IMG/VR virus record: IMGVR_UViG_3300024249_000009
Location: 1-50,166 of that record
Length of the DNA: 50,166 nt
From: a virus
Lineage: Duplodnaviria > Caudoviricetes
Strand: one strand, 5' to 3'
Part shown: positions 3,088 to 41,010 of the stretch, in pieces
Layout: each line of letters begins with the position of its first letter
How positions within the stretch are numbered: the stretch's first letter is position 1
Notes under the pieces: model-generated
Database searches by the model: none
What the model saw: the letters and a program-made list of their open reading frames with translations, nothing else
What the model was told of the DNA's origin: nothing
Translations under genes and position numbers: made by a program

Positions 3088-4740
3088 GTGGCCACCGCAG
3101 TTCAAGACCCAGCTCGCACGCTGAAAATCTCCGACTTCTACAGACCTTGGCCGAAGCAGGAACTCTTTCACTGTCTTCCGGCGAAGCATCGTCTGCAGGT
3201 TGGAGGATTCGGGTCTGCGAAATCACGCGCACTGTTGATGGAAGCAATCGCGTGCCTCACCGACTGCCCCGGCGCCAACGGTATCATCCTCCGCAAGACC
3301 ATTCCTGATCTGAAGCGCACCGTCATCGACAAGTTTGAAGTGGACGTCCCCAAAGCCTTCTACGAAAAGGGATCGCAAGAGAAGGGCACGTTCAACAAGA
3401 GCGATCACATCGTGTACTTCCCGCCAGTCTGGTGCGACGACTACGATCCTGAAAGCGGAGAAATAATCTACGAAGACGAAACGAAGAAGAAGCCGAAGCG
3501 CGTGATGCGCCAGAGCAAGCTTTACTTCGCGGCCTGCGAACGCATCGAGGATGTCGGCAAATATCTATCGACGGAGTTTCTCTTCATCGGCTTCGAGGAG
3601 CTCGGCGAGTTTCCGTACCTGATCTACGACGCGATGGAAGGACGCAACCGCTGCACGATACCAGGCGCGCGGCCCTGCATGGCATCAGCGACGAACCCCA
3701 TGGGCGTGGGCTGGGGCTGGATCAAGAAGTTGTGGATCGAGAAGAAGCCAGTGCATGGAATGGATCCGGAGAAATATAATCCGGACGACTATCAGTACGT
3801 GCACTCGACCGTTGACGACAATCCCATCCTGATCAAGGACAAGAAGTACGTCGAATCACTCGAGAAATCTCCGCTGCGCGAGAAGATCCGCTGGGGCAAC
3901 GTCGAGACCGTCAGCGGCCAGTACTTCGATAACTGGGAAGAGAATGCGCGCGTGCTGCCGGCGTCGAAGTTCATCTTCGAGCGGTGGCAGCCTGTGTGGG
4001 TCGGCTGGGACTATGGCTTCGGCCACTTCGCGGTGATCACGTTCTGGACGAAGGCGATCCTGAAGCCACGCTTTGAAAGCGAGAAGCCGCGCATCGTGAA
4101 TGTGACACTCGCGGAACTCGTGCTGCACGAGAATACGCCAAAGCAGCAGACGGAAGCTTTGATCGCCATGATCCCGCGAGTGAAGAACGAAGACGACGGA
4201 ACTGAAGGCTACGCGTGGGACATCGATTCAGTCCACCTGTCGTGGGAACGATTCAATCGCACGGTAGAGAACAGGACTGTGGCTGACGAGATCGGAGACT
4301 ACCTCTCGGCCGCTGGATTGCCCCGTCCTACTCGCAGCAACAATGATCGCGTGGCTGGGTGGACGACGATGTACGAAATGATCGACAGCGACGAGTGGTT
4401 CATGATCGAGGGCGCCTGCCAGACAGTTGCAGAATCTGTTCCGCTGCTGGTTCGCGGCGATGGCATCACTGTTTCGGCGGAAGATGTCGTGAAGCCGAAG
4501 GGCGTGAGTTTAACGGATGACTGCGGCGACTCCCTGCGGTATGCTGTTGCTGGATTTCTTTTGGAAGCCAACGAGAAACCACGTAACCAACTTCTTCGGG
4601 AAAAACTCGCTGGCATCAAAGACCCAATGCAACGCCACATAGCTGCATTCCGTGAATGGAACAAAGAACAAGCCGAAAATCGAAAACCACAAGGCCCCGG
4701 TAAAATCATTCCGTCATGGCAAAGGCGAATAAGGCCGTAA
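3088..4740 (+). CDS. terL: Terminase large subunit
   Basis: PWPKQ adenine motif, Walker A-like GGFGSAKS, Walker B-like FIGFEE, ATNP coupling motif, nuclease VGWDYG and DDCGDSLRY. Confidence 0.95.
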   Translation: MATAVQDPARTLKISDFYRPWPKQELFHCLPAKHRLQVGGFGSAKSRALLMEAIACLTDCPGANGIILRKTIPDLKRTVIDKFEVDVPKAFYEKGSQEKGTFNKSDHIVYFPPVWCDDYDPESGEIIYEDETKKKPKRVMRQSKLYFAACERIEDVGKYLSTEFLFIGFEELGEFPYLIYDAMEGRNRCTIPGARPCMASATNPMGVGWGWIKKLWIEKKPVHGMDPEKYNPDDYQYVHSTVDDNPILIKDKKYVESLEKSPLREKIRWGNVETVSGQYFDNWEENARVLPASKFIFERWQPVWVGWDYGFGHFAVITFWTKAILKPRFESEKPRIVNVTLAELVLHENTPKQQTEALIAMIPRVKNEDDGTEGYAWDIDSVHLSWERFNRTVENRTVADEIGDYLSAAGLPRPTRSNNDRVAGWTTMYEMIDSDEWFMIEGACQTVAESVPLLVRGDGITVSAEDVVKPKGVSLTDDCGDSLRYAVAGFLLEANEKPRNQLLREKLAGIKDPMQRHIAAFREWNKEQAENRKPQGPGKIIPSWQRRIRP

Positions 4741-4743
4741 AAG

Positions 4744-5151
4744 ATGACCTTCCAAGTAGGACACCAGCTTAGAAAAGTCCACGGACATACTTCCGGCAGT
4801 GGGAAGAACGCGAGAGTAAGCAGGACGTACCAATCTTGGCACTGCATGAAATTGCGTTGCCTTCGTTCCTACCACAAACACTTCAAGGACTACGGTGGAC
4901 GCGGAATAAAAATTTGTCGAAGATGGATGAGCTTTGCCAATTTCCTCGCCGACATGGGAGTGCGCCCAGCAGGAAAAACGCTCGACCGTTGGCCCAACAG
5001 AAACGGCAACTACACGCCACGAAATTGCCGATGGGCAACTCCTAAGCAGCAAGCCGAAGGCCGACGACCATTGCCGCCATTTTCACGCGAGCATCGTCAG
5101 CACATAAGCGAAGCAGCAAAACGTCGAGAGCAACGAAGGAAGAAAATATGA
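4744..5151 (+). CDS. HNH homing endonuclease
   Basis: YGGRGIKICRRW.SFANFLADMG.RP.GKTLDR...GNYTPRNCRWAT, plus a NUMOD3-like basic tail. Confidence 0.9.
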   Translation: MTFQVGHQLRKVHGHTSGSGKNARVSRTYQSWHCMKLRCLRSYHKHFKDYGGRGIKICRRWMSFANFLADMGVRPAGKTLDRWPNRNGNYTPRNCRWATPKQQAEGRRPLPPFSREHRQHISEAAKRREQRRKKI

Positions 5152-5693
5152 GCTTCTTCGCAAATCTTTTCCGTAATCGTAGGGCCGAAGCGGCCGAGGC
5201 GAATGCCGAACGCATCGTGGCGCTGTGGAAAGAGCAGGTCTGCCGGCAGATCGAGATGGAAGCTCGATTGGTTGAAGCGCATCGTGTCCACGTCGCCGCG
5301 ATCGAAGCGCTGAACCTCCAACTTCAGTATGAGTCCATGCGAGAGCGCACCGAATTGAAAAAGGCTCACGCCGACGAGCTGAAACGTGTTATAGAAGAGA
5401 AACAGAAATTGTGGGACGAGCTCACGAAAGTGAGATACGTCGAGACCCCAGCACTCCGGCAAGTGCAGGTGAACACAACGGAAGACAGCGCACCGCCGCC
5501 ATCGCCGAAGTTAGAGACTCCAGTCGGCACTCCCTGGCAGCGAGTACAGCGATTCTACGCAGAGCAACAGGAAGCGGCAGCACGAACCCGTTTCACGAAG
5601 CCTGCGGAGGCTCCTGTAAAGGGAGAGACAAATGGCAATGATGGCGAAGGACGGGACTCGGCACCACTCGGCAAGCCGAGCTCGAATGCATGA
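5148..5693 (+). CDS. Coiled-coil hypothetical protein
   Basis: ATGA coupling; heptad-rich helical composition. Confidence 0.7.
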   Translation: MSFFANLFRNRRAEAAEANAERIVALWKEQVCRQIEMEARLVEAHRVHVAAIEALNLQLQYESMRERTELKKAHADELKRVIEEKQKLWDELTKVRYVETPALRQVQVNTTEDSAPPPSPKLETPVGTPWQRVQRFYAEQQEAAARTRFTKPAEAPVKGETNGNDGEGRDSAPLGKPSSNA

Positions 5694-6102
5694 TGAGTTG
5701 TCCACGAGCAAAGGATCCGCGACAGTAACACCGATGCGGACGCCCGGAGCTGGCGAGAAAGATGGAGGTCAGGGCCCGAAACACCCGCAACCTTCAACGA
5801 CTTCGATCACCGATCACGTCAACGAACACGGTCCAGCGCACGCGGTCCATCACGAGTTCGACAAAGGCTCGAATCTTCACCACGTAAGTTCCTTCCACGG
5901 CGACGCAAAACCCGGAGAGAACGACCACCCGGGCGCGCACCACTCGCAGCACAAAACTCACGCCGCCGCTCACCAGCACATGGGCAAATCCATGGGCCTC
6001 GATCACGAAGCCGAAGATCGTCCCGAAGAAGAGGGCGACGAGACTCCGGATTCGACAGAGGATCAGGAAACCGGAAAGCACGCAATCCCCGGCCTCGCGT
6101 AA
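5632..6102 (+). CDS. His-rich hypothetical protein
   Basis: AAGGGAGAG RBS; 21 His in 156 aa; acidic tail. Confidence 0.75.
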   Translation: MAMMAKDGTRHHSASRARMHDELSTSKGSATVTPMRTPGAGEKDGGQGPKHPQPSTTSITDHVNEHGPAHAVHHEFDKGSNLHHVSSFHGDAKPGENDHPGAHHSQHKTHAAAHQHMGKSMGLDHEAEDRPEEEGDETPDSTEDQETGKHAIPGLA

Positions 6103-6108
6103 ACCGCA

Positions 6109-6573
6109 ATGCCGTGGACCTACAAAATCGAAGCATGCCCTTCGTGCGGGAAGAAACGGAGAATCCAAACCTGCAGGAGTAGACGACTCTGCAAGGATTG
6201 CAGTAATGCGATAAATTCGCGCAGAGGTGCTGCCAGCAACCTGTTCAAGCACGGTGGAACAGGACGCACTGAGTTTGTTATTTGGTGCTCGATGCGTCAA
6301 CGCTGTATGAATCCAAAGCATCCGGCCTACGCTGACTACGGTGGACGCGGGATCAGGATTTGTGAACGGTGGAACAAGTTCAAGAATTTCCTGAAAGACA
6401 TGGGGCCGCGCCCCAAAGGCAAATCGCTGGACCGTCGAAATAATGACGGCGATTACACTCCGCGAAATTGCCGGTGGGCCACGCGATTCCAGCAAGCGAG
6501 AAATAGAAGGCCACGCCAGAAGTTAACATTGGAACGGTGGCTGGGGATGGTGGCCCATTCCATGGACACCTAA
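6109..6573 (+). CDS. HNH homing endonuclease with N-terminal Zn finger
   Basis: CPSC...CKDC; YGGRGIRICERW..F.NFLKDMGPRPKGKSLDR...NCRWAT. Confidence 0.9.
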   Translation: MPWTYKIEACPSCGKKRRIQTCRSRRLCKDCSNAINSRRGAASNLFKHGGTGRTEFVIWCSMRQRCMNPKHPAYADYGGRGIRICERWNKFKNFLKDMGPRPKGKSLDRRNNDGDYTPRNCRWATRFQQARNRRPRQKLTLERWLGMVAHSMDT

Positions 6574-6724
6574 GCAGTTCAGATTTCTGATGTCTTCAGG
6601 ATCTCCGCTCACTGAAGCTCAGAAGGAGAAAGACAAGGCCGAGGCGCACGCGGATCCCTCGATGGTTCATCGTAAAAAGGGATCGCGAATGGCCGAGGCC
6701 TTCAGGAAGGCACGCCGGGGATGA
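6557..6724 (+). CDS. Small basic phage protein, probable ATT start (MPWTPKQFRFLMSSGSPLTEAQKEK...)
   Basis: Not in the ORF track; open frame ending in an ATGA overlap with 6721; ATT CCA TGG ACA mirrors the HNH start ATG CCG TGG ACC. Confidence 0.6.
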   Translation: MPWTPKQFRFLMSSGSPLTEAQKEKDKAEAHADPSMVHRKKGSRMAEAFRKARRG

Positions 6725-7023
6725 GTGAGCTCTACGAATTCAACGCGAACGGAAGCTGGATCTCTCCGCAGATGGGGCGTTACGTTCGCGAGCATGCACC
6801 GCTGGCTCACGAAGTGCGCGTCCATCCGATGCAGATGAGGAAACTCGTGCAGCTCTATCCTCCGGAGCCGCCGAAGAAGAATGCAGATGTCACGTTGTCG
6901 CAATTGGGTCACGTATTTGCAGGCCTGCACCTCACGCAGGATCAGTACATGCCGGACAGTGAGATGCATTTCTACGACGCCTCGGGAGCGCTCGTCGCAA
7001 AGATAATCGGGCTGGAGCGGTAG
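6721..7023 (+). CDS. Hypothetical protein
   Basis: Translationally coupled at both ends. Confidence 0.7.
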   Translation: MSELYEFNANGSWISPQMGRYVREHAPLAHEVRVHPMQMRKLVQLYPPEPPKKNADVTLSQLGHVFAGLHLTQDQYMPDSEMHFYDASGALVAKIIGLER

Positions 7024-7241
7024 TGATCAACGAGAAAGCGATCAAGGGCGAAGAAGGCACCGGATACGAAGGACCAGAAGGCGGCGCTTTTCGTTGCTCC
7101 AACTGCGAGTACTTCAACTCCACCACCGACGGCTGCAAACAAGAAGACATGAAGAAAAAATCCAAGCGGGAGCGGTTGCCGAGTGGCGATGTCCTCGTTC
7201 AACCAGGCGGATGCTGTGAGTACATCGACAGGAGGAAGTGA
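7023..7241 (+). CDS. HiPIP-like small Cys protein
   Basis: GY...RCSNCEYF....GC....VQPGGCCEY resembles the high-potential Fe-S Cys spacing. Confidence 0.6.
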   Translation: MINEKAIKGEEGTGYEGPEGGAFRCSNCEYFNSTTDGCKQEDMKKKSKRERLPSGDVLVQPGGCCEYIDRRK

Positions 7242-7432
7242 TGGCCGGGAATAGGTGGATGCAGAAAGTCAGCAGCGGGATCAAGCATCGCGGCACGGAA
7301 GGCGTGTTCAGTTCTGCTGCGAAACGCGCTGGCAAGAGCACGCATGCATTTGCCGAAGAACACAAACACTCGAGCGGTAAGGTAGGAAAGCGCGCGCGCC
7401 TCGCATTGGCGTTTGCAAGCGCAAAGCACTAA
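7241..7432 (+). CDS. Small basic phage protein (GKRARLA type)
   Basis: AGGAGG RBS; WMQK...GKVGKRARLALAF. Confidence 0.8.
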   Translation: MAGNRWMQKVSSGIKHRGTEGVFSSAAKRAGKSTHAFAEEHKHSSGKVGKRARLALAFASAKH

Positions 7433-7445
7433 CTGAGGAGTCCCA

Positions 7446-10043
7446 GTGGCGACAGCAGTCCAAGATTATGCCGGGAGCGCTCAGGCGCCTGACGAGAAAC
7501 CAAGTCAGGAACCGAAGTACGACATCGGTGTCCTCGCAGGCCTCGAATGGTCCCGCGTACCGAACGCCAAGCTCGATACCAAGCAACAGAATTTACTGAA
7601 GGAGATCGCGCGCAAAGCGGCGAAGCGCGACTATCCTGCTCGGCTGATCGAAGTCATTCAAGCGTGGGAAGCGGCTCTGTTCTATCGTGGCTTCCAGTTC
7701 CTCATTCCGCAGCGTGGTGGCGGCTGGATCATCCCGGGCGAAGCGACGGGTTACGGGCCATCGATGCAGATGGACATGGCGCTCCTGCCGACGAACATCT
7801 ACTCGGCACGCGCACAGATGATCATCGCGGCCTTAACGCGTACCGTCCCGAACGTACGCTTTGCTCCAGTCCGCGCGAACTCAGACGCACAGATCACTGC
7901 GGCTGATTCCGCTGAGAAGTTCCGCAAGGTCATCAGTAAAAACAACGACCTGATCCAGATCCAGACGGACGCCTCGCGCTATCTATGGACGGACGGACGA
8001 TTCCTGTACTACTCGCGGTTTGTGAAGGACGGCCAGAGATTCGGTTGGGAAGAGGACGACGAGCCAGATGATCTCGTTCCGGAAAACGAAGGCGAGCCTG
8101 GTACGACTCCTGTTGAGGGTGCCGCTGCTGCAGCGACGCCGGAATCTCCTGAGACCGCTAAGGAAGGCGCCGAGAGCAAAGAAGTAGTGCCCGAAGGCCA
8201 GACCCACGTCGAACACGAAGCGAGCGAGACTGACGAAGAGAAAGAAGCGGAAGGCGAGCTCGGCGAATTCGAGAAGCGCACACCTCGTGGTCAGGAAGTA
8301 CGGACGGCGCACGGCAAGCTCGAAGTAAAGCTGACGCCGATGATGGCAAACGATCTTTCCGAAGTCGATGTGCTGCAGTATGAGACCGAAGTCGATATCT
8401 GCCGCGCAAAGGGAATGTTCCCGTGGGTCGCCGACGATCTGAAATCGGAAACGAATCAGGCGGCGATGGGAGAGATCGGAAGACTGGCGCGCCAGAACGT
8501 GAAGCTCGGCATGCAGTCCACGTATGTGACTTCGGACAGCATCGCGGCCGACGTCACGATCCAGCGGACGTGGATGCGTCCGAGCCAGCTGATGGACATC
8601 AAGGACAAAAGCGATCGAGACAAGATGATCGCGATGTTTCCGAACGGCTGCTACGTGGTCTACGCCGGAGAAACTTTCTGCTTCGCTCGCAACGAATCGA
8701 TGGACGACTGTTGGGCCCTCGGGCAGGCCTACTCCGGAGACGGACAGAACCGCAACGCCATGGGCACATCGACGATGCCCGTCCAGAAACGGCTGAACAA
8801 CTGGCTGGATCTGATGAACGACATCTTCGTGCGGACGATTCCGAAGAAGTGGATGGACTCGAAAGCGTTCGCTGTCGAAACGCTGCGCCAGCAAACGAAC
8901 GTGCCCGGAGACATCGGCGGATTCAAGCGCCAGCCCGGAGTACCTGTCACCGAACTGATCTTCGTAGAGCCTGCAGTAAACCCACCCGCGAATCTCGCGG
9001 ACTTCATCAAGGAATACTCAGGTCCTCTTGCGGAGCTGCTCTCGGGAGCGTATCCCGCATTAGCTGGGGGCGATGTCGGCACGGCTGACAGCGGTGTAGC
9101 CATCGCCACCCAGCGAGATTCCGCGCTCGGGCGCCTCGCACCAACATGGCACTCGATCAAGAATGCGGAAGCTGTGTCGATGAAGCAGATGGTTCGCTGG
9201 GGCGCGAAGTGTCGCGACAAGTCGATCAACGAAAAGATTCCCGGCGGCGAGACGATCACTCTCGAGATCAATGATCTCAAGGGGAATATCACGGTCTTCG
9301 CCGAGAGCGACGAAAACTTCCCGGAGACCTACACCCAGAAGAGCAACAAGCTCATGGGAGTCTTCGATAACCTCGGGAAGAATCCGCAGCTCGCCGAAGT
9401 TTTCTTCAACGCTGCGAACCTCGAGTTCCTGCAGAACATGCTCGGACTATCCGATCTCGTGATCCCGCAGGTGATCTCGCGCAACAAGCAGCTCGGGGAG
9501 ATCGAGCTGATGATGAAGACGGGACCTGTCCCGAATCCGCAGGTGGAAATGCTGCGTGAGAAGATCGAACAGATCAAAGCGAGCGGAGTGGATCCACAGG
9601 AACTCGCGCAGGCCGAGCAGGAGCTCGCTGCGATGCCGCAGAATATCTGCTCGATTCCAATCGAATCGACGGACGACAATGCCACCGAGGCGGCGACATG
9701 CTGGATCTGGATCAACGGCGACGAAGGCCGCAAAGCGAAGAAGACCGACAAGGATGGATTCGACAACGTGGTGCTACACTTCCACGAACACGATGAGGCA
9801 GCGAAGCAGGCTGCAGCAGCCGCGCAACAGACCGGAAAGCCGCCGAGCGTCAGCGTTGGATACAAGGACGTCGTGCAGGTCGATCAGGGCGCGGCACAAC
9901 AGATCTTGCAGAAGGCTGGAGTAACTCCCTCCCCGGGGGCAACCGCTCCCGCGCCAGTCCCTGCAGGTGCAGGAGCGAAATCTCCGGCACCGCCGATACC
10001 AGTCGGCACGCCGCAAGGCGCTGGTGGAGCACCGAAACATTAA
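7446..10043 (+). CDS. Portal protein
   Basis: 865 aa between TerL and scaffold; SGVAI motif; helical C-terminal barrel; GAGGAG RBS. Confidence 0.85.
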   Translation: MATAVQDYAGSAQAPDEKPSQEPKYDIGVLAGLEWSRVPNAKLDTKQQNLLKEIARKAAKRDYPARLIEVIQAWEAALFYRGFQFLIPQRGGGWIIPGEATGYGPSMQMDMALLPTNIYSARAQMIIAALTRTVPNVRFAPVRANSDAQITAADSAEKFRKVISKNNDLIQIQTDASRYLWTDGRFLYYSRFVKDGQRFGWEEDDEPDDLVPENEGEPGTTPVEGAAAAATPESPETAKEGAESKEVVPEGQTHVEHEASETDEEKEAEGELGEFEKRTPRGQEVRTAHGKLEVKLTPMMANDLSEVDVLQYETEVDICRAKGMFPWVADDLKSETNQAAMGEIGRLARQNVKLGMQSTYVTSDSIAADVTIQRTWMRPSQLMDIKDKSDRDKMIAMFPNGCYVVYAGETFCFARNESMDDCWALGQAYSGDGQNRNAMGTSTMPVQKRLNNWLDLMNDIFVRTIPKKWMDSKAFAVETLRQQTNVPGDIGGFKRQPGVPVTELIFVEPAVNPPANLADFIKEYSGPLAELLSGAYPALAGGDVGTADSGVAIATQRDSALGRLAPTWHSIKNAEAVSMKQMVRWGAKCRDKSINEKIPGGETITLEINDLKGNITVFAESDENFPETYTQKSNKLMGVFDNLGKNPQLAEVFFNAANLEFLQNMLGLSDLVIPQVISRNKQLGEIELMMKTGPVPNPQVEMLREKIEQIKASGVDPQELAQAEQELAAMPQNICSIPIESTDDNATEAATCWIWINGDEGRKAKKTDKDGFDNVVLHFHEHDEAAKQAAAAAQQTGKPPSVSVGYKDVVQVDQGAAQQILQKAGVTPSPGATAPAPVPAGAGAKSPAPPIPVGTPQGAGGAPKH

Positions 10044-18123: not shown

Positions 18124-18501
18124 ATGGCCGTCGCAACACTTACAGTTAAGGCTGGATTCGTACAGACCAACGACCAGCGTACGCAAAGCTTCTGGGGCAC
18201 GTTTCAGGTCAGCGCGCCGACGGACATTTATCCGGCCGGTGGGTTCTCTCTGGATCCTGTGCTTCTGGCAGCTCTCCAGCCGAACACTAATACTGGTTTA
18301 ATCGGATTTCAGGCGAACGGTTCCGGTGCTGGTTATATCTATCAGCGCATTCCGTCCACCGGAAAACTGATGGTCTTGCAGGTTCCTTTCAACGGATCGC
18401 TCACCACGGCGGCGCCGCTGATTCAGTATCCGTCCTCGGCGGTGTCTGGCATCTGGGCTGACGTGATCAGCTTTGAAGCCATCTATCTCCGCAACGCGTA
18501 A
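18124..18501 (+). CDS. Small virion (decoration-like) protein
   Basis: AAGGAG RBS; YPAGG motif; beta-rich. Confidence 0.6.
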   Translation: MAVATLTVKAGFVQTNDQRTQSFWGTFQVSAPTDIYPAGGFSLDPVLLAALQPNTNTGLIGFQANGSGAGYIYQRIPSTGKLMVLQVPFNGSLTTAAPLIQYPSSAVSGIWADVISFEAIYLRNA

Positions 18502-18953
18502 GCCTTATTTTCGGCTTGTTGCTTCCATGTGGCCCAACGGCAATTACTCGGCTCGTAGTTGCCGTTGGGGTCCGGGAATCTATCCAAGGTGAGACGCGGA
18601 GATTTTTTGTGACCCATATCAGCGAGAAAATTCGCAAAGGACTTTTTCCATCTGGAGCACACAGTTACACCTCTACCCCCGTACCTATGGAAGCTGTGAT
18701 AGTTGGGATTGAGACAACGCTGAAGCATGTTCCAGTAAGAAAAATATTCCGGCTTTCCCCAGTGCCCGTGTTTAGAAAGCGCGCATCCGCAACTCGTTGT
18801 TTGTTTCCCAACGAGATTTTTCCCGAGAGCGCGCTTTGTCTTTCCGCAATCGCAGAGGCACAACCAGAGAGATCCACTTTTTCTATTTGGGATCCGTTTG
18901 ATTACCACAAGTCTTCCAAAGCGGAGTCCTTGAAGTGTGAGCGCTTTTCTCAT
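18483..18953 (-). CDS. HNH homing endonuclease (antisense, leaderless)
   Basis: GLRFGRL...WLCLCDCG...TTSCGC...YGGRGVTVCSRW...NYEPSNCRWAT. Confidence 0.9.
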   Translation of the reverse strand: MRKALTLQGLRFGRLVVIKRIPNRKSGSLWLCLCDCGKTKRALGKNLVGKQTTSCGCALSKHGHWGKPEYFSYWNMLQRCLNPNYHSFHRYGGRGVTVCSRWKKSFANFLADMGHKKSPRLTLDRFPDPNGNYEPSNCRWATWKQQAENKAYALRR

Positions 18954-18960
18954 TTCGTGC

Positions 18961-18989
18961 ATTTTATAAGGGAGTAGTAAAATTAACAA
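18961..18989 (-). promoter_or_regulatory. Sigma70 promoter for the antisense HNH
   Basis: TTGTTA-17 nt-TAAAAT on the minus strand, 7 nt before ATG 18953. Confidence 0.65.
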
Positions 18990-32983: not shown

Positions 32984-33181
32984 ATGGCCATTCCCGTCGA
33001 GATCACGGTAGAGAAGGCGCTTGACCAGATAGCAGCAAGGAAATGCGTCCCCATCGGGATCCTCTCGTACGACATGGAGAAAGAGACGCTGGTGATCGAG
33101 CTCGTGGGCCAGATCCATCCGGACGAAGTGAACGCCCTCCTCATAAAGCTCGGAATCGAAGCGAACTTCACAGAAAAATGA
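32984..33181 (+). CDS. Small hypothetical protein
   Basis: MAIPVEITVEKAL...; ATGA overlap with the next gene. Confidence 0.65.
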   Translation: MAIPVEITVEKALDQIAARKCVPIGILSYDMEKETLVIELVGQIHPDEVNALLIKLGIEANFTEK

Positions 33182-33603
33182 ACCTGACTTATCATCCGAT
33201 CATTCACGGTCAGGGAAGACGTGGAAAACACACTCGAGCATATCGCTCCTACAACGACGCCAAAAAGCGATGCACCAATAAAAAAGCCACTGGCTACAAG
33301 AATTATGGTGGTCGAGGCATCAAATTTCTCTTTACGTCCTTTCAGCAGTTCTTCGCAGAATTGGGGCCGCGCCCGAAAGGCAAGACCCTTGATCGAAGAA
33401 ATAACGATGGCCACTACGAACCAGGCAATGTCCGATGGGCAACACGACGAGAGCAGAATCTAAATCAGCGTTACCGTCCGGACAGACGCGAAAGAATGCT
33501 GGGCAACAAACTCTTCTTGGGACGGCAGCACACTAAAGCAACAAAACTTAAAATGTCGAAGGCTGCAGTCAGGAGATGGAATGCGGATCGCACTCGTCAC
33601 TAA
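33178..33603 (+). CDS. HNH homing endonuclease with NUMOD3 tail
   Basis: YGGRGIKF...LGPRPKGKTLDR.NNDGHYEPGNVRWAT...GRQHTKATKLKMS. Confidence 0.9.
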   Translation: MNLTYHPIIHGQGRRGKHTRAYRSYNDAKKRCTNKKATGYKNYGGRGIKFLFTSFQQFFAELGPRPKGKTLDRRNNDGHYEPGNVRWATRREQNLNQRYRPDRRERMLGNKLFLGRQHTKATKLKMSKAAVRRWNADRTRH

Positions 33604-35449
33604 CTGGAACGGTATAGGATTGACCCGCGATGGAGAACTCCTTCGGAATTTCCTTCAATCCAAAGGGAACGAAGTTTTTGAATATCAGTGGGACGGTGAA
33701 GCGCCGACTGAGAAATTCGATCTGGTTATTTTCCTTGAAGTGATCCCGCGAAACTTTCTCGAGCTCGCTCCTGTTAAGTGGGCTTTTTTGAACCCGGAGT
33801 GGTGCAAGCCGGATGTGATCAAGATGGCCGAGCGGCACATCGACAGGATCTTCGCAAAGACGCACGAAGGCCAGAGGATCCTCGAGGGGACATTTCCGGG
33901 CAAAGTTTTCTATACGGGCTTCCTGACGCGCGATCAATTCACGCCGGCGATAAAACGCCAGAAATGGTTCCTGCACATCGGGGGAAATTCTTCGATGCGC
34001 GGGACACAGGCTGTGGTCGACGCATGGAAATGGAAAAAGGACGGCTTTGAGCTTCAGTGCAAGCTCTTCGTCGTCTCTTCGGTCTTGCAGGATAAGCCGA
34101 ATCTTCTAAACGTCACCTACATCGAACGCGCGACGGAAGAAGAGCTCTACAGTCTGCAGAACCAGTGCATGTTCCATATCTATCCGAGCGGCACCGAGGG
34201 CTTCGGTCATGCGCTCCACGAATCGCTGAGTGTCGGCGCTGTCCTACTCGCTACGGATGCGCCGCCGATGAATGAAATTAGCAACGCGTACCGGATGAAG
34301 GCGAAGAAGGTCGGCAAGTACAATCTTTCGGATGTCTATGAAGTGGACGCTATCGAGATCTTTGAATCGGTGCAAGCGGTCCTGACCGTCTATGATGGAC
34401 CGCCCCAGTCGTGGCATTTCCCGCGAAAAGAATTTGAATCGCTGAACGCGGAATTCGCGACGCGATTCGAGAAGGAACTGCTTGCCATGGAGCCGGGAAA
34501 GAAAGCTCCAGTGGTCCGCACCGCGAAAACGAAACCGAGCATCGCGTTTATCGGAAATTTCAAGGCCAGCGAGAGCACAGAGAACATGATCCGCTGGGCG
34601 CTCGAGGAACGTCTCGGCTACGACGTCGAGCAGTTGCAGGAAAACGAAGTGAATCTGGCAGCGATCCGGAGCGCGTGTCTTTGGAACGACGCTCTCTTGT
34701 GGGTGAAGACTCCAAACTGGCTGCAGGTGACGAACCGTGAGATGGAGGAACTGCTCGAGGAGATCAAAATTCCGTCGTTCTCGATTCACCTCGACAAGTT
34801 CTGGGATATCACGGAGAGAGAGCCGCAGATCGGCGTGCATCCTTTCTGGAAGACCGATTTCGTTTTTACGGCCGACGGATCCGCGCAGGACAGATTCAGG
34901 GAACGCGGAGTGAATCACATCTGGATGAAGCCAGCGGTGAGTGAAGTCTACTGCCACCCAGGCTGGACGTGGGATATGTACCGCTGCGACGTCGGCTTCG
35001 TTGGAGCAAAGGACTACCACGCGCAATATCCCTTCAGGAAGCAGCTCGTCGAGTTCCTCGAGAAGACCTACAAGGAACGCTTCCAGCACATCACAGGCCT
35101 GCGCGGCCACGGCCTGAATGATTTCTATGCGAGTTGTTCTGTGGCCATTGGAGATTCCATCTTTGCGGGCACGCCATATTATTATTCGGATCGTGCCCCG
35201 GAAACGACAGGGAGACAAGGATTTTTGTTACACCCTAAAGTTGACGGACTTTGCATTCCTTGTGCTACCTATCAACCACAAGATCTCGATGATCTCAGAA
35301 ATCAAATCGACTTTTGGATCGCCAATCCACAGCAGCGCCGTGAGAAAATTATTGAATGTTTCGACCATGTGATCTCTCACGATACTTGGACGGTGAGGCT
35401 TAGGGAAATTTTAAGGATAGTTTTCGATGGGCATAAAGCACACTTTTAA
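33581..35449 (+). CDS. Two-domain GT-B glycosyltransferase (GT4-like plus CgeB-like)
   Basis: PS.TEGFGH...ES...GA.L.ATDAPPMNE; second domain CDVGFVG...LN.FYAS...YYSDR..E.TG..HTW..R. Confidence 0.85.
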   Translation: MRIALVTNWNGIGLTRDGELLRNFLQSKGNEVFEYQWDGEAPTEKFDLVIFLEVIPRNFLELAPVKWAFLNPEWCKPDVIKMAERHIDRIFAKTHEGQRILEGTFPGKVFYTGFLTRDQFTPAIKRQKWFLHIGGNSSMRGTQAVVDAWKWKKDGFELQCKLFVVSSVLQDKPNLLNVTYIERATEEELYSLQNQCMFHIYPSGTEGFGHALHESLSVGAVLLATDAPPMNEISNAYRMKAKKVGKYNLSDVYEVDAIEIFESVQAVLTVYDGPPQSWHFPRKEFESLNAEFATRFEKELLAMEPGKKAPVVRTAKTKPSIAFIGNFKASESTENMIRWALEERLGYDVEQLQENEVNLAAIRSACLWNDALLWVKTPNWLQVTNREMEELLEEIKIPSFSIHLDKFWDITEREPQIGVHPFWKTDFVFTADGSAQDRFRERGVNHIWMKPAVSEVYCHPGWTWDMYRCDVGFVGAKDYHAQYPFRKQLVEFLEKTYKERFQHITGLRGHGLNDFYASCSVAIGDSIFAGTPYYYSDRAPETTGRQGFLLHPKVDGLCIPCATYQPQDLDDLRNQIDFWIANPQQRREKIIECFDHVISHDTWTVRLREILRIVFDGHKAHF

Positions 35450-35987
35450 GGATTTAAGCGGTCTGCGATTCGGAAGACTCACCGTGCGTTGGCCTTCTGG
35501 ACGGCACGGTGGAAGAACGCGGTGGCTATGTTCCTGTGAATGTGGAAGTATTCGACCATCCATACCCACAGACCATCTTGTTCGTGGAAACACAAAGAGT
35601 TGTGGATGCCTTCAACGAGAAAAGGCGGCACGAACAGGTGCTGCCAAGAAACTTCCAAACCATGGTGCAGGAATGAACGCACTGTACGCGAGATATAGAA
35701 TCGCTGCCACTCAACGTGGCCTTATATTTGGCATTTCCAAGAAAGTCTTTGTTTTCACGATTCTTTTAGATTGTCACTACTGCGGTGCAAAACCACGAAA
35801 ATGTTACGTAAATAAGTCTGTTTTCTGCGTGAGCAACGGAATCGACAGAATGAACAATTCAAAAGGTTACGAGAAATCAAATATCGTGCCCTGTTGTTCG
35901 ACGTGCAATTTCATGAAAGTGAAAATGTCCCACGATGAATTTATCAAGCAATGTCGTGCTGTAGCAAAATTCAGGGAGAAAATCTGA
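35427..35987 (+). CDS. HNH homing endonuclease
   Basis: DLSGLRFGRL...WLCSCECG...KSCGC...CHYCG...NGIDR.NNSKGY...NIVPCC..CN.MK. Confidence 0.9.
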   Translation: MGIKHTFKDLSGLRFGRLTVRWPSGRHGGRTRWLCSCECGSIRPSIPTDHLVRGNTKSCGCLQREKAARTGAAKKLPNHGAGMNALYARYRIAATQRGLIFGISKKVFVFTILLDCHYCGAKPRKCYVNKSVFCVSNGIDRMNNSKGYEKSNIVPCCSTCNFMKVKMSHDEFIKQCRAVAKFREKI

Positions 35988-36310
35988 TGCCGAAATGTAC
36001 GAAGGTCGATTGCAAGAACGATGCTACGAAAGCGCTGAAGTTGGTTTTCCGCAATGTGGCCGACGGTCCGAGCGTCACCGCATATATCGCGCTCATCGTC
36101 TGCGACGAGATCCACATGCCGGAGGAGGAAGTCGTCCAGTTCTATACGGAAAATTTCGAGACACTCTGCCTGTGCATCGAAGAAGTCGGCAAGATCAAGC
36201 CGAACATTGCGCTCACAAGATTTTCGTGGGTGCCGCTCGAGGAAGCGGAAACCAACTGGGCGGAAGCGCTCGATAGAGCGAAGACCGTCAATCTCGTGGA
36301 GGAAAAATGA
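35987..36310 (+). CDS. Hypothetical protein
   Basis: TGATG coupling; MPKCTKVDC. Confidence 0.7.
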   Translation: MPKCTKVDCKNDATKALKLVFRNVADGPSVTAYIALIVCDEIHMPEEEVVQFYTENFETLCLCIEEVGKIKPNIALTRFSWVPLEEAETNWAEALDRAKTVNLVEEK

Positions 36311-37188
36311 TCCCGGTGATCTGGCACCACTCGGATGGTTTCTGGGACTGTGCGTTTCCGAGATACATCCTCGATCACGCCGCGCGCTGCATGCACGTCG
36401 TCGGCCTCGACAAGGTGCCGATGTTTTTTGGGCAAGATACCGCAGTGGTGGTTGTGCCTGGTCGGCACTCGGATCATCTCGATCAGTACGCCAGCCTGCG
36501 CGAGGTCGCAAGCGATTTCAAGAAAGTGATCTACATCATCATCGGCGACGAAGAGGGCGTCTTCCAAGTTCGTGCGCTCCACAATGAGAACGCGAAGATC
36601 TGGTGGTTCATGCCGCCATTCAATCCGAAGCAGGAAGTGGACCGTGTGGCGCCGAACGGCTGGCCGACAAATGCGATCGAGATGATCGGTGAGGCGCGAA
36701 AAGCGAGCCGGGGAATCCGCAGCTTCGACTGGAGCTTCATGGGACAGGTGACGCACCGGAGGCGGGAGGAATGCGTCGCTGCCGCGAAGGATATCCCCCG
36801 GGGGCACCTCCTGTGCACGACTGGCTTCACGAAGGGAGACACGCGAGAAAATTATTACGACGTCATGGTGAGATCCCGCGCGGTCCTTTGTCCTTCGGGG
36901 CCCTGCACGCCGGACTCGTTCCGGCTTGCAGAGGCCCTCGAGGCCGGATGCATGCCGATTGTCGATGACGCGACTCCGAACCCGCTCTATCCTCCGGGCT
37001 ACTGGAAATACGTCTTCGCGAATAAGCCGCTCCCATTTCCACTGGTCACCGATTGGAAAAATCTTCCTTTCATACTTGAGTTCTGCCGGGATAACTGGGA
37101 GCACCGCATCGGTGCATGCCGCCTCTGGTGGAAGAGCCAGAAGGAACGCATGATCGCCGAGATGAAAGAGGATCTCAATGAAGAATAA
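36307..37188 (+). CDS. Exostosin-like (GT47) glycosyltransferase
   Basis: SFMGQ...RR...S..VLCPSG...DSFRLAEALEAGCMPI. Confidence 0.8.
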   Translation: MIPVIWHHSDGFWDCAFPRYILDHAARCMHVVGLDKVPMFFGQDTAVVVVPGRHSDHLDQYASLREVASDFKKVIYIIIGDEEGVFQVRALHNENAKIWWFMPPFNPKQEVDRVAPNGWPTNAIEMIGEARKASRGIRSFDWSFMGQVTHRRREECVAAAKDIPRGHLLCTTGFTKGDTRENYYDVMVRSRAVLCPSGPCTPDSFRLAEALEAGCMPIVDDATPNPLYPPGYWKYVFANKPLPFPLVTDWKNLPFILEFCRDNWEHRIGACRLWWKSQKERMIAEMKEDLNEE

Positions 37189-37936
37189 GATCACCGTTCT
37201 CATTCCGACGTCACCGATCCCGAGTCATCCGTCGACGGCAGTGATCGAAAAAGCGATCTCGTCCGTTCGCCAACATCTGCCCGACGTCAGGATCATGGTT
37301 ATGATCGATGGTCTCCGGGACGAGCAGAAACACTACCAGGCACAATACCTCGAATACATCAAGAACCTTGTCGGGATCTCAATTTTCCACGAAAAGAATA
37401 TTTGCCTGATGCCCTTCATGGAGTTCACGCACCAGGCGGCGATGACGCGCAAGGCGCTGGAGATGGTGACGACACCGCAGATCCTCTTCGTGGAACACGA
37501 CACATTTTTTCTTGACGGTTTGCCGATCGATTTCGAGGGGATCTCGAAAGTGATCGAAGCCGGCCACGCAAACATGATCGGCTTTCACTGTCAGTGGGAA
37601 CCCTGGGTCATCCCGGAGCACGAGCATTTGATGCTCGACAAGGAACGCGTCTATTTTGACGGCGTGCCGATGATCCGCACATGGCAGTGGAGTCAGAGGC
37701 CGCACGTTGCCTCGGCTGACTTCTATCGTCGTATTTTACATTCTTATTTCAGCAAAGACTGTCGTACATTCATCGAAGATCAAATGCACCCAACAGTTCT
37801 CGCCACCCGTGCGGCCGCTGGAGATGATGCATGGAACCAGTGGCGGCTGATGATATATGCTCCAGATGGATCAATTAGAAGAACATGGACCACTGATGGT
37901 CGTGGGAGTGATCAAAAGTTCGATTGTAAGCCATGA
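37178..37936 (+). CDS. GT-A fold glycosyltransferase
   Basis: ITVLIPTSPIPSHP...DG...LFVEHD...QWSQRPH. Confidence 0.75.
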   Translation: MKNKITVLIPTSPIPSHPSTAVIEKAISSVRQHLPDVRIMVMIDGLRDEQKHYQAQYLEYIKNLVGISIFHEKNICLMPFMEFTHQAAMTRKALEMVTTPQILFVEHDTFFLDGLPIDFEGISKVIEAGHANMIGFHCQWEPWVIPEHEHLMLDKERVYFDGVPMIRTWQWSQRPHVASADFYRRILHSYFSKDCRTFIEDQMHPTVLATRAAAGDDAWNQWRLMIYAPDGSIRRTWTTDGRGSDQKFDCKP

Positions 37937-38457
37937 AGACGCTAGATCTGACAAACCAAGAATACGGAAGATTGACTTTCCGTTGGCCAATTGGACGAAG
38001 AGGAGATGACATTATTTGGTTGATTTCCTGTGTGTGCGGAAATCTCCTAACAACTAACGCCGCTCCGATTCGCCGTGGAAATACGAGTAGCTGTGGATGT
38101 TTAAGGAAAGAGATGTTGGTGGCTCGCACGCGAACCCACGGAATGAATGGAACGCTCGAACAGACAATGTGGCTCTCGGCAAAAGTCCGTGCAAAGAAGA
38201 AGCACGTTCCTTTCAACATTGAACTCTCTGACGTCATCATTCCAGCATTTTGTCCATTGCTCGGAATTCCAATTCGAAAGAGCAAAAAATCACTCAGTCC
38301 CAATAGCCCTTCGCTCGACAGAATTATTCCCGCACTAGGTTACGTAAAGGGAAATGTTCGGGTTATAAGCCACAAAGCGAACACTGCAAAAAGTAATTTG
38401 ACCATCGAAGAGATGGAGACTCTACTGACGAACTGGAGGAAGTCATGTCCACAGTGA
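37933..38457 (+). CDS. HNH homing endonuclease
   Basis: YGRLT...SSCGC...CPLLG...SPSLDRI.P..GYVKGNVRVIS..AN..K. Confidence 0.9.
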   Translation: MKTLDLTNQEYGRLTFRWPIGRRGDDIIWLISCVCGNLLTTNAAPIRRGNTSSCGCLRKEMLVARTRTHGMNGTLEQTMWLSAKVRAKKKHVPFNIELSDVIIPAFCPLLGIPIRKSKKSLSPNSPSLDRIIPALGYVKGNVRVISHKANTAKSNLTIEEMETLLTNWRKSCPQ

Positions 38458-39194
38458 GCATCGCTGAAGCAGAATTTGTACCCAGAAAACTCAATGGCGG
38501 TGAGTATACGGTGAAGATGCCGAAATTTCTCGCGGAGCATCCAAGCTGGGACAACTGGGAAAGGGAACGATTCGCCAGTATGAAAGAGAATTTGAAGCAA
38601 GGCGACGTATTGTTCGACGTTGGATCAGAAACTGGATCTATCTCCGCAATTTATGCGAGATTTGTTGGACCGGAAAATATCGTCCTTATGGAATCGAATC
38701 CGGACAACTGGCAGAACATCTACGCGACGTGGCAGGCCGAAGGCCTTGCGGATCCGCTTGCTACGTTCTGCGGCCTTGTCAGCGATCAGACGCAGGTCCC
38801 GAAGACCAACTACGATCCCGCGTACATGGGAGCGTGGCCACTACCAGCGCTAACTGGGAGGGTGTGGACGCCGCGATCCTACCGCTACCTCCACGAGCAC
38901 GCGCACAACACCGCGCAGATCACCCTCGATGATTTCTCTGCAACGAAGAAGATTATTCCGAAGGCGATCACCATCGACGTCGAGGGTGCGGAGTTCGAGG
39001 TGCTGCTCGGTGCCCGGGAGCTACTCAAAAAATCGCGGCCGCTCGTCTGGGTGAGTATCCATCCGGATCTGATGCTCGCGCACTACAAGCACTCGGTGAA
39101 AGAAGTTCTGAGCCTGATGGCGCTGCTAAATTACAGGGATACGTGGCTCGCCAGCGACCACGAGATCCACTATCTCTTCAGGCCGCTGCTATGA
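38445..39194 (+). CDS. FkbM-family methyltransferase
   Basis: LFDVGSETG...ITLDD...ITIDVEGAE.EVL.GA..LL...RP. Confidence 0.85.
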   Translation: MSTVSIAEAEFVPRKLNGGEYTVKMPKFLAEHPSWDNWERERFASMKENLKQGDVLFDVGSETGSISAIYARFVGPENIVLMESNPDNWQNIYATWQAEGLADPLATFCGLVSDQTQVPKTNYDPAYMGAWPLPALTGRVWTPRSYRYLHEHAHNTAQITLDDFSATKKIIPKAITIDVEGAEFEVLLGARELLKKSRPLVWVSIHPDLMLAHYKHSVKEVLSLMALLNYRDTWLASDHEIHYLFRPLL

Positions 39195-39928
39195 ATCTGC
39201 ACGACGACATCACGGTGGTGATCCCCACCAGCCCCATTCCCAGTTGCCCGACAACCACGCTGATCGAGCAGACGATCAACAGTATTCGCGTCCATCTTCC
39301 CGACGTCGACATCCTCATCCAGGCGGATGGAGTTCGTCCGGAGCAGGAAAAATTCCGCGAGCCCTACAGGCTCTATATCGAAAGACTCGAGAACATCTGC
39401 TCCGATCCGGACAATAACATCACGATGATCGAGTTTGAGGAGTTCCATCATCAGGCGGCGATGATGAAGCGGAGCATCGGAGAAATCGGAACTCCGTTTC
39501 TCTTCTACGTCGAGCACGATCTTCCACTACTTCCGGATCCGATAGACTTCGTCGGAATGGTCCGGTTGCTTCGCTCCGGCGCCCTCAACCAGATCCGTCT
39601 GCACTACTGGTCGCAGATCCTCGACGATCATAAATACTTAATGCTCGACGAGAAGCCGCTGTTGATGGACGGCGTTCCGATTGTCCGTACTGTGCAGTGG
39701 TCACAGCATCCCCACGTCGCGCGTGTAGACTTCTACCAGCGGCTGATGGACGCGTTCTCTCCGAACTGCCGGACAATGATAGAAACTAAAGTGTACGGGC
39801 TGGTGCAGTCGGCGCGCTGGGACGATTACCGTTGCGGGATCTATGCCCCGGAGCCGAATCTCCGCAGGATCTACCACACGCATGGAAGGGAGGAAGAGCC
39901 TAAATGGGAAGAGAACTTTACATTCTGA
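39191..39928 (+). CDS. GT-A fold glycosyltransferase, paralogue of 37178-37936
   Basis: ITVVIPTSPIPSCP...YVEHD...QWSQHPH. Confidence 0.75.
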   Translation: MNLHDDITVVIPTSPIPSCPTTTLIEQTINSIRVHLPDVDILIQADGVRPEQEKFREPYRLYIERLENICSDPDNNITMIEFEEFHHQAAMMKRSIGEIGTPFLFYVEHDLPLLPDPIDFVGMVRLLRSGALNQIRLHYWSQILDDHKYLMLDEKPLLMDGVPIVRTVQWSQHPHVARVDFYQRLMDAFSPNCRTMIETKVYGLVQSARWDDYRCGIYAPEPNLRRIYHTHGREEEPKWEENFTF

Positions 39929-40260
39929 GATCCACGAAAGGTCAATTCCTTCCCGGATCTCAAATCAGATTAATTCACGGCGGGGACCGAAGAGGGAAAA
40001 GAACTTCGACCTATGTTAGTTGGGTCGAAATGAAAAAGCGTTGTCTCAATCCGAATTGCGTCCAGTACAAGTATTACGGCGGCCGTGGAATTAAGATTTG
40101 CGCGAGGTGGCTGAAGTCTTTCAAAAACTTTCTCGCCGACATGGGTCATCGACCAGTAGGAAAAACCTTGGACCGTATAAAGACGAATGGACATTACAGG
40201 CCCTCAAACTGCCGTTGGGCCACGCACACGCAACAGGTGCGAGGTAGGAGAAAGCGGTAG
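39904..40260 (+). CDS. HNH homing endonuclease
   Basis: YGGRGIKICARW..SF.NFLADMG.RP.GKTLDRI..NGHY.PSNCRWAT; start uncertain. Confidence 0.9.
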   Translation: MGRELYILRSTKGQFLPGSQIRLIHGGDRRGKRTSTYVSWVEMKKRCLNPNCVQYKYYGGRGIKICARWLKSFKNFLADMGHRPVGKTLDRIKTNGHYRPSNCRWATHTQQVRGRRKR

Positions 40261-41010
40261 ATGCTCACCCCGATACAGTTCGCCGACATGCAGGAAGTCT
40301 GGATGCAGGTCATGGTCAAGCATCCTGAATTCACTCAAGCGCACGATCCTTCCGGGAACTACCACTCGGTGCGGGAAATCGTTCTCGGCGGATCGACGGG
40401 CTGGGCCGGAGTCCACCGGAGATTCACGCCGGCGCCCGGGATGCGCGTGATGGATGTCGGTGCGAATGCCGGGATCTGGTCGGCCTTCTGTGCAGTGAAA
40501 GGCGCGTACGTCGTGGCCTACGAACCTTTCGCAGCTCCGTACCTGCTCCTGACGATGATGATCGAGAAGACGAAACTCGAGAAGCGGATCACCGCGCTCA
40601 ATGCCGCTGTGTGGCACAAGGATGGCTGGCTCCCTTATATCGGTAACATCACTTCGCTCGATGGCGCCTGCACCGTTTTCAACGGAGGACTCGAGACGGC
40701 CGGAGTTCCGTGGACGCGGTCAGACATCGTCAACGCAAAAAAAGTTGCGTGCGTCAGCTTCGATGAAGCCATCGGGTCTTTTGAGTGGGACTGTGTGAAG
40801 ATGGACGTCGAAGGAGCGGAAGCCGAGATCATCGCATACTCAAAACCTGAGACACTGAACAGAATCAGGTTCATGTACATCGAGTTCCATCCATGGATAC
40901 CGCAAGATCTCTACGATTCGATGATCAGAAAACTTCAGGATTTCTTCACCTTCGAGGGTCTCTACGTCAACGATCAAGGCCGCTGGGAGGCGGCTTACCT
41001 CACCCGATAA
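40261..41010 (+). CDS. FkbM-family methyltransferase
   Basis: VMDVGANAG...VAYEP...VKMDVEGAE...IEFH. Confidence 0.9.
   Translation: MLTPIQFADMQEVWMQVMVKHPEFTQAHDPSGNYHSVREIVLGGSTGWAGVHRRFTPAPGMRVMDVGANAGIWSAFCAVKGAYVVAYEPFAAPYLLLTMMIEKTKLEKRITALNAAVWHKDGWLPYIGNITSLDGACTVFNGGLETAGVPWTRSDIVNAKKVACVSFDEAIGSFEWDCVKMDVEGAEAEIIAYSKPETLNRIRFMYIEFHPWIPQDLYDSMIRKLQDFFTFEGLYVNDQGRWEAAYLTR

Follow-up and report, generated by a model that had tools for sequence, protein, structure and literature searches.

A candidate mobile HNH cassette at the start of a small phage head-module gene, with a probable restart at AUU

How can a nuclease gene sit on the start of another gene and leave that gene readable? 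The question is raised by a locus in the window analysed here (the whole stretch of DNA, 50,166 nt, a linear virus record with an estimated completeness of 76%), in which the first codons of an HNH-family gene return in slightly altered spelling near its 3' end, where they head a small gene that begins with ATT. The answer that we favor, with a probability of roughly 0.8, is that 6121-6600 is a mobile HNH cassette lacking a start codon of its own, which was inserted after codon 4 of the small gene, likely by homing, and which likely rescues this gene with a new Shine-Dalgarno (SD) site, an AUU start and its own version of codons 1-15.

Two copies of one gene start

The window sequence is contained in soil metagenome runs, and of eight genome matches of the small gene four bear the label Acidobacteria, Terriglobia or Terriglobales. 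The locus belongs to the head module, in which the terL gene is followed by an HNH gene, two genes without a name, the HNH gene at 6109-6573 and four small genes. An 865-aa gene of this module is presumed, by its position alone, to encode the portal, and a weak major-capsid match was found at 12656. The genes concerned are the following.

3088-4740: terminase large subunit
4744-5151: first HNH gene, directly after terL
5632..6102, + strand: upstream His-rich head-module gene (host), its stop 6 nt 5' of the MPWT start, as in empty alleles
6109..6573, + strand: open reading frame of an HNH-family endonuclease, 154 aa, with a CxxC..CxxC N-terminus, a YGGRGI/DR-N-N core and a tail overlapping the new start
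6557..6724, + strand: small basic gene, 55 aa, likely AUU-initiated (380 homologues; start survey), its stop overlapping the next start
6721..7023, + strand: next head-module gene, coupled to the small gene by an ATGA overlap

Three small His-rich or basic proteins are encoded between the terminase and the presumed portal (5632-6102, 6557-6724 and 7238-7432); they are conserved in many relatives and have no family match.

The arrangement described in the original prediction was recovered from the letters. The HNH frame opens at 6109 with ATG CCG TGG ACC, and at 6557, in the +1 frame relative to the HNH gene, ATT CCA TGG ACA CCT AAG CAG opens 55 codons. A GGGGA motif at 6543-6547 precedes this ATT by 9 nt. 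No in-frame start lies nearby, as the frame is closed by a TAA at 6524 and the first in-frame ATG, GTG or TTG is found at 6590; at the other end the TGA of the small gene (6722-6724) overlaps the ATG at 6721, which is the coupling that had been claimed. The two 12-mers differ at three positions, all of them third codon positions. The pattern ATKCCNTGGAC, picked after the fact, is found at 6109 and 6557 and nowhere else in the 50 kb window, where 0.20 occurrences are expected and two out of 100 shuffles reach two. An upstream MPWT was also seen by chance in one of 115 other distinct loci (L036), where it lies inside another gene and was rejected as a start duplication. Since such chance copies arise, the 12-mer alone is only suggestive and the evidence from homologues has to decide.

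A profile search with the small gene found 380 proteins. Among the 120 of these that were listed, 115 start with M/V-PW and three with MPY at residue 1, and the remaining two are extended upstream; the MPWT start expected in relatives free of the HNH gene is thus present in the family. The opposite outcome, homologues that start at MSSGSP (ATG 6590) and lack PWTPKQ, would have spoken against a displaced start, and none of the 120 listed proteins starts with MSSGSP. A Met at the position of 6590 occurs in only 16 out of 132 loci. The ATG CCG TGG AC of close relatives agrees with the beginning of the HNH gene and not with the ATT copy, which bears out the claim that the HNH gene occupies the native start of the small gene. 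The distance of 6 nt between the stop of the His-rich gene and the HNH ATG falls within the native spacing, which ranges from −1 to 15 nt over 26 loci.

The small gene has no match in annotated phages, Pfam, PHROGs, NCBIfam or Atlas, and its relatives make up a soil-phage head-module family without a name. In one clade of this family (L036, L037, L079, L035) the small protein runs into a His-rich acidic C-terminal region, which resembles a fusion with a His-rich neighbour domain.

Filled and empty alleles

A contig assembled from one run, X16 (899 nt, depth 62), provides the comparison of a filled and an empty allele. It matches the window from 6085 to 6669 and then continues into unlike flanks, which are of the type of locus L088, an empty allele. 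Compared with the L088 flanks, the contig shows three differences in 187 positions on the left and two in 232 on the right (98–99% identity). Placed on L088 it has a single joint, after L088 position 3012, where 32 nt (codons 5–15) are skipped and 480 nt stand in between. This insert corresponds to window 6121-6600 with 19 differences in 480 positions (96%), and the other differences of the matching piece are L088-type flanks. The elements of the insertion are listed below.

6109..6120, + strand: codons 1 to 4 (MPWT) of the small gene in native form, serving as the HNH start and left boundary of the cassette; 12 nt identical in the empty L088
6121..6600, + strand: mobile cassette, 480 nt, consisting of the start-less HNH gene, the Shine-Dalgarno site, ATT and small-gene codons 1-15
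6557..6600, + strand: replacement 5' end (ATT and codons 2-15), 15 of 32 nt identical to the replaced L088 segment

To the left of the cassette the window and L088 are only 59% alike, and to the right of it 62-73%, while the cassettes of X16 and the window are 96% alike. A near-identical cassette is therefore present in two phage backgrounds with flanks far less alike, and the claim that the HNH unit is mobile finds its support here, the filled recombinant being one assembled contig in one run. Insertion at the start, as originally predicted, holds as well; the replaced stretch has to be revised, from four codons to about 15. The recipient lost its codons 5-15 and received the cassette's codons 1-15 instead. 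L088 probably did not arise by excision, because its codons 5-15 share only 15 out of 32 nt with the cassette version.

The exchanged tract in X16 ends at the ends of the cassette, and the DNA immediately adjoining it is of the recipient type on either side. As judged from the sequences, the boundary evidence for the cassette is unusually clean, and so tight a tract suggests a cut near the start of the gene. Among the loci examined none was an empty allele flanked as in the window, DNA patterns for the tail and head of the cassette returned only two copies from viral contigs, both identical to the window, and the contigs of run X1 gave no match onto L088.

The two PWT copies had also been read in another way, as sites between which splicing or ribosomal bypass removes the HNH gene. 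The TGG codon common to both copies would be agreeable to such a joint, as would the first six residues of the HNH protein, MPWTYK, which fit the family pattern MPWTxK. The TAC AAA behind the first copy, however, belongs to the cassette and not to the host. No Rfam match was obtained in 4600-7500 at E up to 1, so that no group I or group II ribozyme core is recognised around the reading frame, and open reading frame fills the whole 448 nt from one copy to the other, which leaves no room for a ribozyme. In bypass of the gene 60 type the take-off codon is described as being followed by a stop in most cases, or by a hungry codon, with a gap of about 50 nt before the landing codon (10.1101/2022.08.31.505936), whereas here the 448-nt gap is open and no stop follows the first copy. 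A strong SD site before the ATT would moreover be unnecessary. No joint skipping the HNH gene was seen in the contigs of runs X13, X14 and X15, which as contigs cannot show absence. We regard this reading as highly improbable, and it finds no support in the data above. Inspection of the sequence also led us to reject a +1 frameshift that would carry ribosomes from the HNH frame to that of the small gene, as no slippery re-pairing is given at ACC TAA.

With neither an Rfam match nor sequence other than open reading frame in the insert, and with a stop of its own, the HNH gene is not placed inside an intron or intein. In being an HNH-family gene free of intron and intein, with filled and empty alleles, it agrees with free-standing phage homing endonuclease genes. 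It also resembles a gene-end replacement, since codons 1-15 are carried and recipient codons 5-15 are lost, the translation from ATT being the inferred part.

Probable initiation of the small gene at ATT

To survey the native starts, 169 loci were fetched (the best 80 of 121 viral matches, the best 80 of 122 metagenome matches, plus others), of which 116 are distinct. As the first DNA patterns favored Met or Ile at position 1, a pattern blind to the start codon was run in addition, giving 52 stretches from 39 distinct loci. In this survey position 1 is ATG in 27, GTG in five, ATT in four (including the window type), TTG in two and ACG in one, which accounts for all 39. In the pooled set of 132 loci, counted after exclusion of a poor match (L009), ATG occurs 108 times, GTG 11, ATT seven, TTG four and ACG two times. 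Because only start-like codons occur there, position 1 is likely the initiation site, and ATT is tolerated at it.

An HNH gene lies directly upstream in only one of the 132 loci, the window's own type, with 114 loci offering at least 600 nt of upstream sequence for inspection. ATT or ACG starts with no HNH gene seen upstream are found in eight out of 131 loci (L008, L093, L211, L224, L068, L139, L129, L237). Six of these start with ATT, four of them clearly: in L008, L093, L211 and L224 a stop lies one to four codons upstream of the ATT. Less clear are L068, with an in-frame ATG 12 codons upstream, and L139, which is cut 16 nt upstream. On the family tree the ATT starts require six changes, at least three by well-supported branches, in a quick and weak tree of 49 columns with few resolved forks. 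No cassette scar is visible in the ATT alleles free of the HNH gene. The rate of non-canonical starts in this family is unusually high, and gene callers would miss these genes.

The signals around the ATT of the window are the following.

6543..6547, + strand: Shine-Dalgarno core GGGGA in the HNH tail, 9 nt before ATT; duplex −10.8 kcal/mol; unchanged in X16
6544..6561, + strand: predicted 7-bp hairpin over the SD site and AUU; z −0.73, not above chance; pairing probability 0.18-0.61
6085..6094, + strand: arm complementary to 6539-6548 (SD region), 10 bp with one G-U pair; a weak lead

Calculated with an E. coli-type anti-SD, the duplex energy at the ATT is equalled by only ten of 131 native alleles. 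Alleles with a start other than ATG have the stronger SD sites, with a median of −7.7 compared to −5.95 kcal/mol (23 versus 108 loci, p = 4e-4). The arm at 6085-6094 belongs to the end of the His-rich gene; among the partners of the SD region within 4700-7400 it ranks first by only 0.6 kcal/mol, and its pairing probability varies from 0 to 0.69 with the window that is folded. The stretch 5900-6900 showed no promoter-like site. The distance from the ATT down to the HNH stop is 14 nt, which falls within the seven codons given as the re-initiation window in a review of homing (PMC2988022).

AUU starts have been confirmed for infC and pcnB of E. coli, and AUU is reported to give 1-2% of the AUG output in an E. 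coli reporter (10.1101/063800); the expression of the small gene is possibly reduced for this reason, perhaps strongly. One may go further and suppose that the frame is not translated from 6557 at all, so that the gene is silenced, or yields a 44-aa product from ATG 6590, and that the phage tolerates this. Besides the weakness of AUU in reporters, the predicted hairpin over the SD site and AUU and the lack of an assigned function of the small protein would agree with this. The conservation pattern does not, as PWT-x-K-Q-F-R-F-L is kept as protein while third positions differ. A Met at residue 12 is, as stated above, confined to few loci, and ATG 6590 has no SD site (−1.8). ATT heads the gene behind a close stop in the four clear native alleles, and both the SD site and the ATT are unchanged in X16. 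We consider a silenced or shortened gene decidedly unlikely; the putative AUU initiation of the small gene at 6557 is, on this comparative evidence, well supported.

Proposed homing, possible immunity and comparable elements

The HNH frame matches PHROGs 3377/8790/374 with E-values of 1e-36 to 8e-39 and has no match in Pfam. Its predicted model (pLDDT 89.7) resembles viral HNH models; a Foldseek comparison with the PDB yielded nothing at E up to 0.001, with PacI in third place at E 1.7. An Arg that is invariant in 70 out of 70 relatives is located where the canonical base is a His. From the sequence we infer nuclease activity. Compared with X16 the codon changes comprise 13 synonymous and five nonsynonymous ones (pN/pS about 0.11), and by this measure purifying selection is acting on the HNH gene.

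An MPW start is found in three out of 119 other listed homologues, all within the five closest (P0124, P0126 and P0127 with 71%, 59% and 57% local identity). P0124 and P0125 keep the tail WLGMVA(H/Y)SMD, which in the window overlaps the SD site and the ATT; the (H/Y)SMD part of the two proteins would allow ATT CCA TGG AC to be read in the other frame. The additional conservation of the tail in P0124-P0127 is not significant (p 0.24 and 0.17), and P0128 and P0323, although related to the HNH protein, do not begin with MPW. Judged by its closest members the lineage looks specialised. Scans with the HNH protein and P0127 returned generic HNH loci, with the small gene nearby only in the window's own type (75 loci). 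The search with the N-terminal region returned the query only, and the representative-protein search yielded mostly multi-domain HNH proteins and no new entry beginning with xPW.

Four more HNH genes of this family are present in the window (4744-5151, 18483-18989 on the minus strand, 33043-33603 and 39904-40260), either intergenic or coupled by overlap and without a duplicated start. A capture of the start by the first of them (4744, MTFQ versus MSFF) was considered and is likely chance, as the starts in the downstream family vary and no peptide is duplicated. Two HNH genes interrupt an apparent cluster of glycosyltransferase and methyltransferase genes at 33581-41010, as labelled by eye. Independent nuclease insertions are also seen in the head module of relatives (L008, L069, L162, L073, L169), comprising an endonuclease frame, HNH genes that lie intact behind terL, and a fragment. 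The endonuclease frame precedes the His-rich gene of L008, at about 1016-488 nt before the start of the small gene, and by its motifs we take it to be endonuclease VII-like. From these arrangements the head module looks like a hot spot of nuclease insertion. The same design at another gene was observed in L280:2390-3037, an HNH gene whose first approximately 15 codons, MSKTQVPLDKIR, duplicate the start of a 677-aa downstream gene, MSKTYVPLDQIR; the latter begins 18 nt after the HNH stop and restarts with ATG.

For the locus in question we propose the following course. Ribosomes leaving the His-rich gene would start at the native ATG and produce the nuclease, which in a mixed infection would cut an empty allele close to the first 15 codons of the small gene. 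The break would then be repaired from the filled phage through homology whose left arm stops within the MPWT codons and whose right arm begins at codon 16. The cut-then-copy steps are modelled on known homing as reviewed (PMC2988022). The small gene would be re-initiated at AUU, aided by the strong SD site and by ribosomes terminating at the HNH stop, which would also open the predicted hairpin. In terms of sequence the filled allele is likely resistant, its target being both split and respelled. Splitting of the site may suffice, and the divergence of the copy may simply protect the cassette from deletion.

The anatomy and the AUU start could be as described and the HNH protein could still cut elsewhere, for example in terL or the portal gene, or be a passenger. 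Co-conversion or ordinary recombination would then have transferred the cassette, whose respelled start would be no more than that of a foreign allele. Free-standing T4 endonucleases are described as cutting hundreds of bases from their insertion sites (PMC2988022), the four further HNH genes show no start duplication, and the synonymous usage of the cassette is ordinary within the close clade (0.30; native range 0.17-0.39). Against this, the tract exchanged in X16 is exactly the cassette, where a distant cut is expected to convert the flank towards the cut, and the MPW start is kept in relatives down to 57% identity. A cut elsewhere therefore appears unlikely to us, and homing into the gene start remains the preferred reading.

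For the ATT spelling as a determinant of immunity to cleavage the comparative evidence is mixed. Among 54 scored positions, just two cassette bases, the T of ATT and the A of CCA, are absent from all 14 nearest native alleles. Family-wide, the synonymous similarity of codons 2-15 is the third lowest of 131, that of codons 16-40 being at the median. The six loci with ATT and no HNH gene seen upstream weaken the claim, as does the ordinary synonymous usage within the close clade, and for MobA in T4 sequence differences in the homologous replacement are reported not to block nicking by themselves (10.1101/2022.08.31.505936). A rather doubtful extension would be that the HNH lineage recognises the start block ATG CCS TGG AC with ATT CCA as the immunity determinant, that the scattered ATT, ACG and TTG starts are escape alleles selected by the nuclease, and that pairing of the cassette tail to the upstream gene's end may restore translational coupling over the insert. 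If this were true, a selfish element would be driving a gene family to non-AUG initiation.

Among known systems the cassette most closely resembles, in our analysis, MobA with its homologous replacement (homR) in the T4-type topoisomerase gene. This phage HNH cassette is likewise reported with a short target deletion (55-75 nt there), a diverged homR overlapping the nuclease frame and recent insertions in several clades; it differs in splitting its gene internally, having its own start and needing a bypass signal (10.1101/2022.08.31.505936). Here, in contrast, the cassette entered at codon 4, the small gene is kept in one piece, the nuclease borrows the host start and the rescue would consist of a new SD site and ATT. 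The WHO elements at yeast FBA1 share with the course proposed here homing without splicing, a carried resistant gene end and a native fragment across the nuclease gene. They are described as eukaryotic elements of kilobases at the 3' end with an intein-like nuclease and shown allele-specific cleavage (PMC7282813), whereas the cassette concerns the 5' end, has an HNH nuclease and 480 nt, and its cleavage is predicted only. In fungal mitochondrial mORFs (Allomyces atp6; Glomus atp6, atp9, cox2 and nad3) an endonuclease frame similarly brings a respelled foreign gene end and leaves the duplicated terminus; these are reported as C-terminal replacements in mitochondria with LAGLIDADG or GIY-YIG nucleases, where a new start codon is not needed (PMC3630166). 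By this comparison the cassette works like the gene-end-replacing WHO and mORF elements and is not a member of them, given its 5' position and HNH nuclease. The free-standing seg/mob genes of T-even phages and the IPA-HNH genes agree in being intron-less HNH genes in a structural module, without an initiation region of their own and overlapping a neighbour. They differ in lying between genes or splitting them and in cutting far away, and in the portions of these reports that concern them no carried replacement start is described (PMC2988022, PMC10448857). Our search of the phage literature, weighted to open-access papers, found no description of such a start-replacing layout. The locus looks like gene-end replacement, a known principle, acting on the 5' end of a gene, where the nuclease borrows the host start and the gene probably restarts without AUG.

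The locus offers a minimal, precisely bounded case of 480 nt for probable homing without splicing at the 5' end of a gene, and the natural pair of filled and empty alleles makes the target and the rule of immunity testable on short DNA. For annotation it means that gene callers truncate or miss such genes and give the nuclease the N-terminus of the host gene. For the phages, it would represent a route by which selfish nucleases swap start codons for AUU, a start confirmed in very few bacterial genes.
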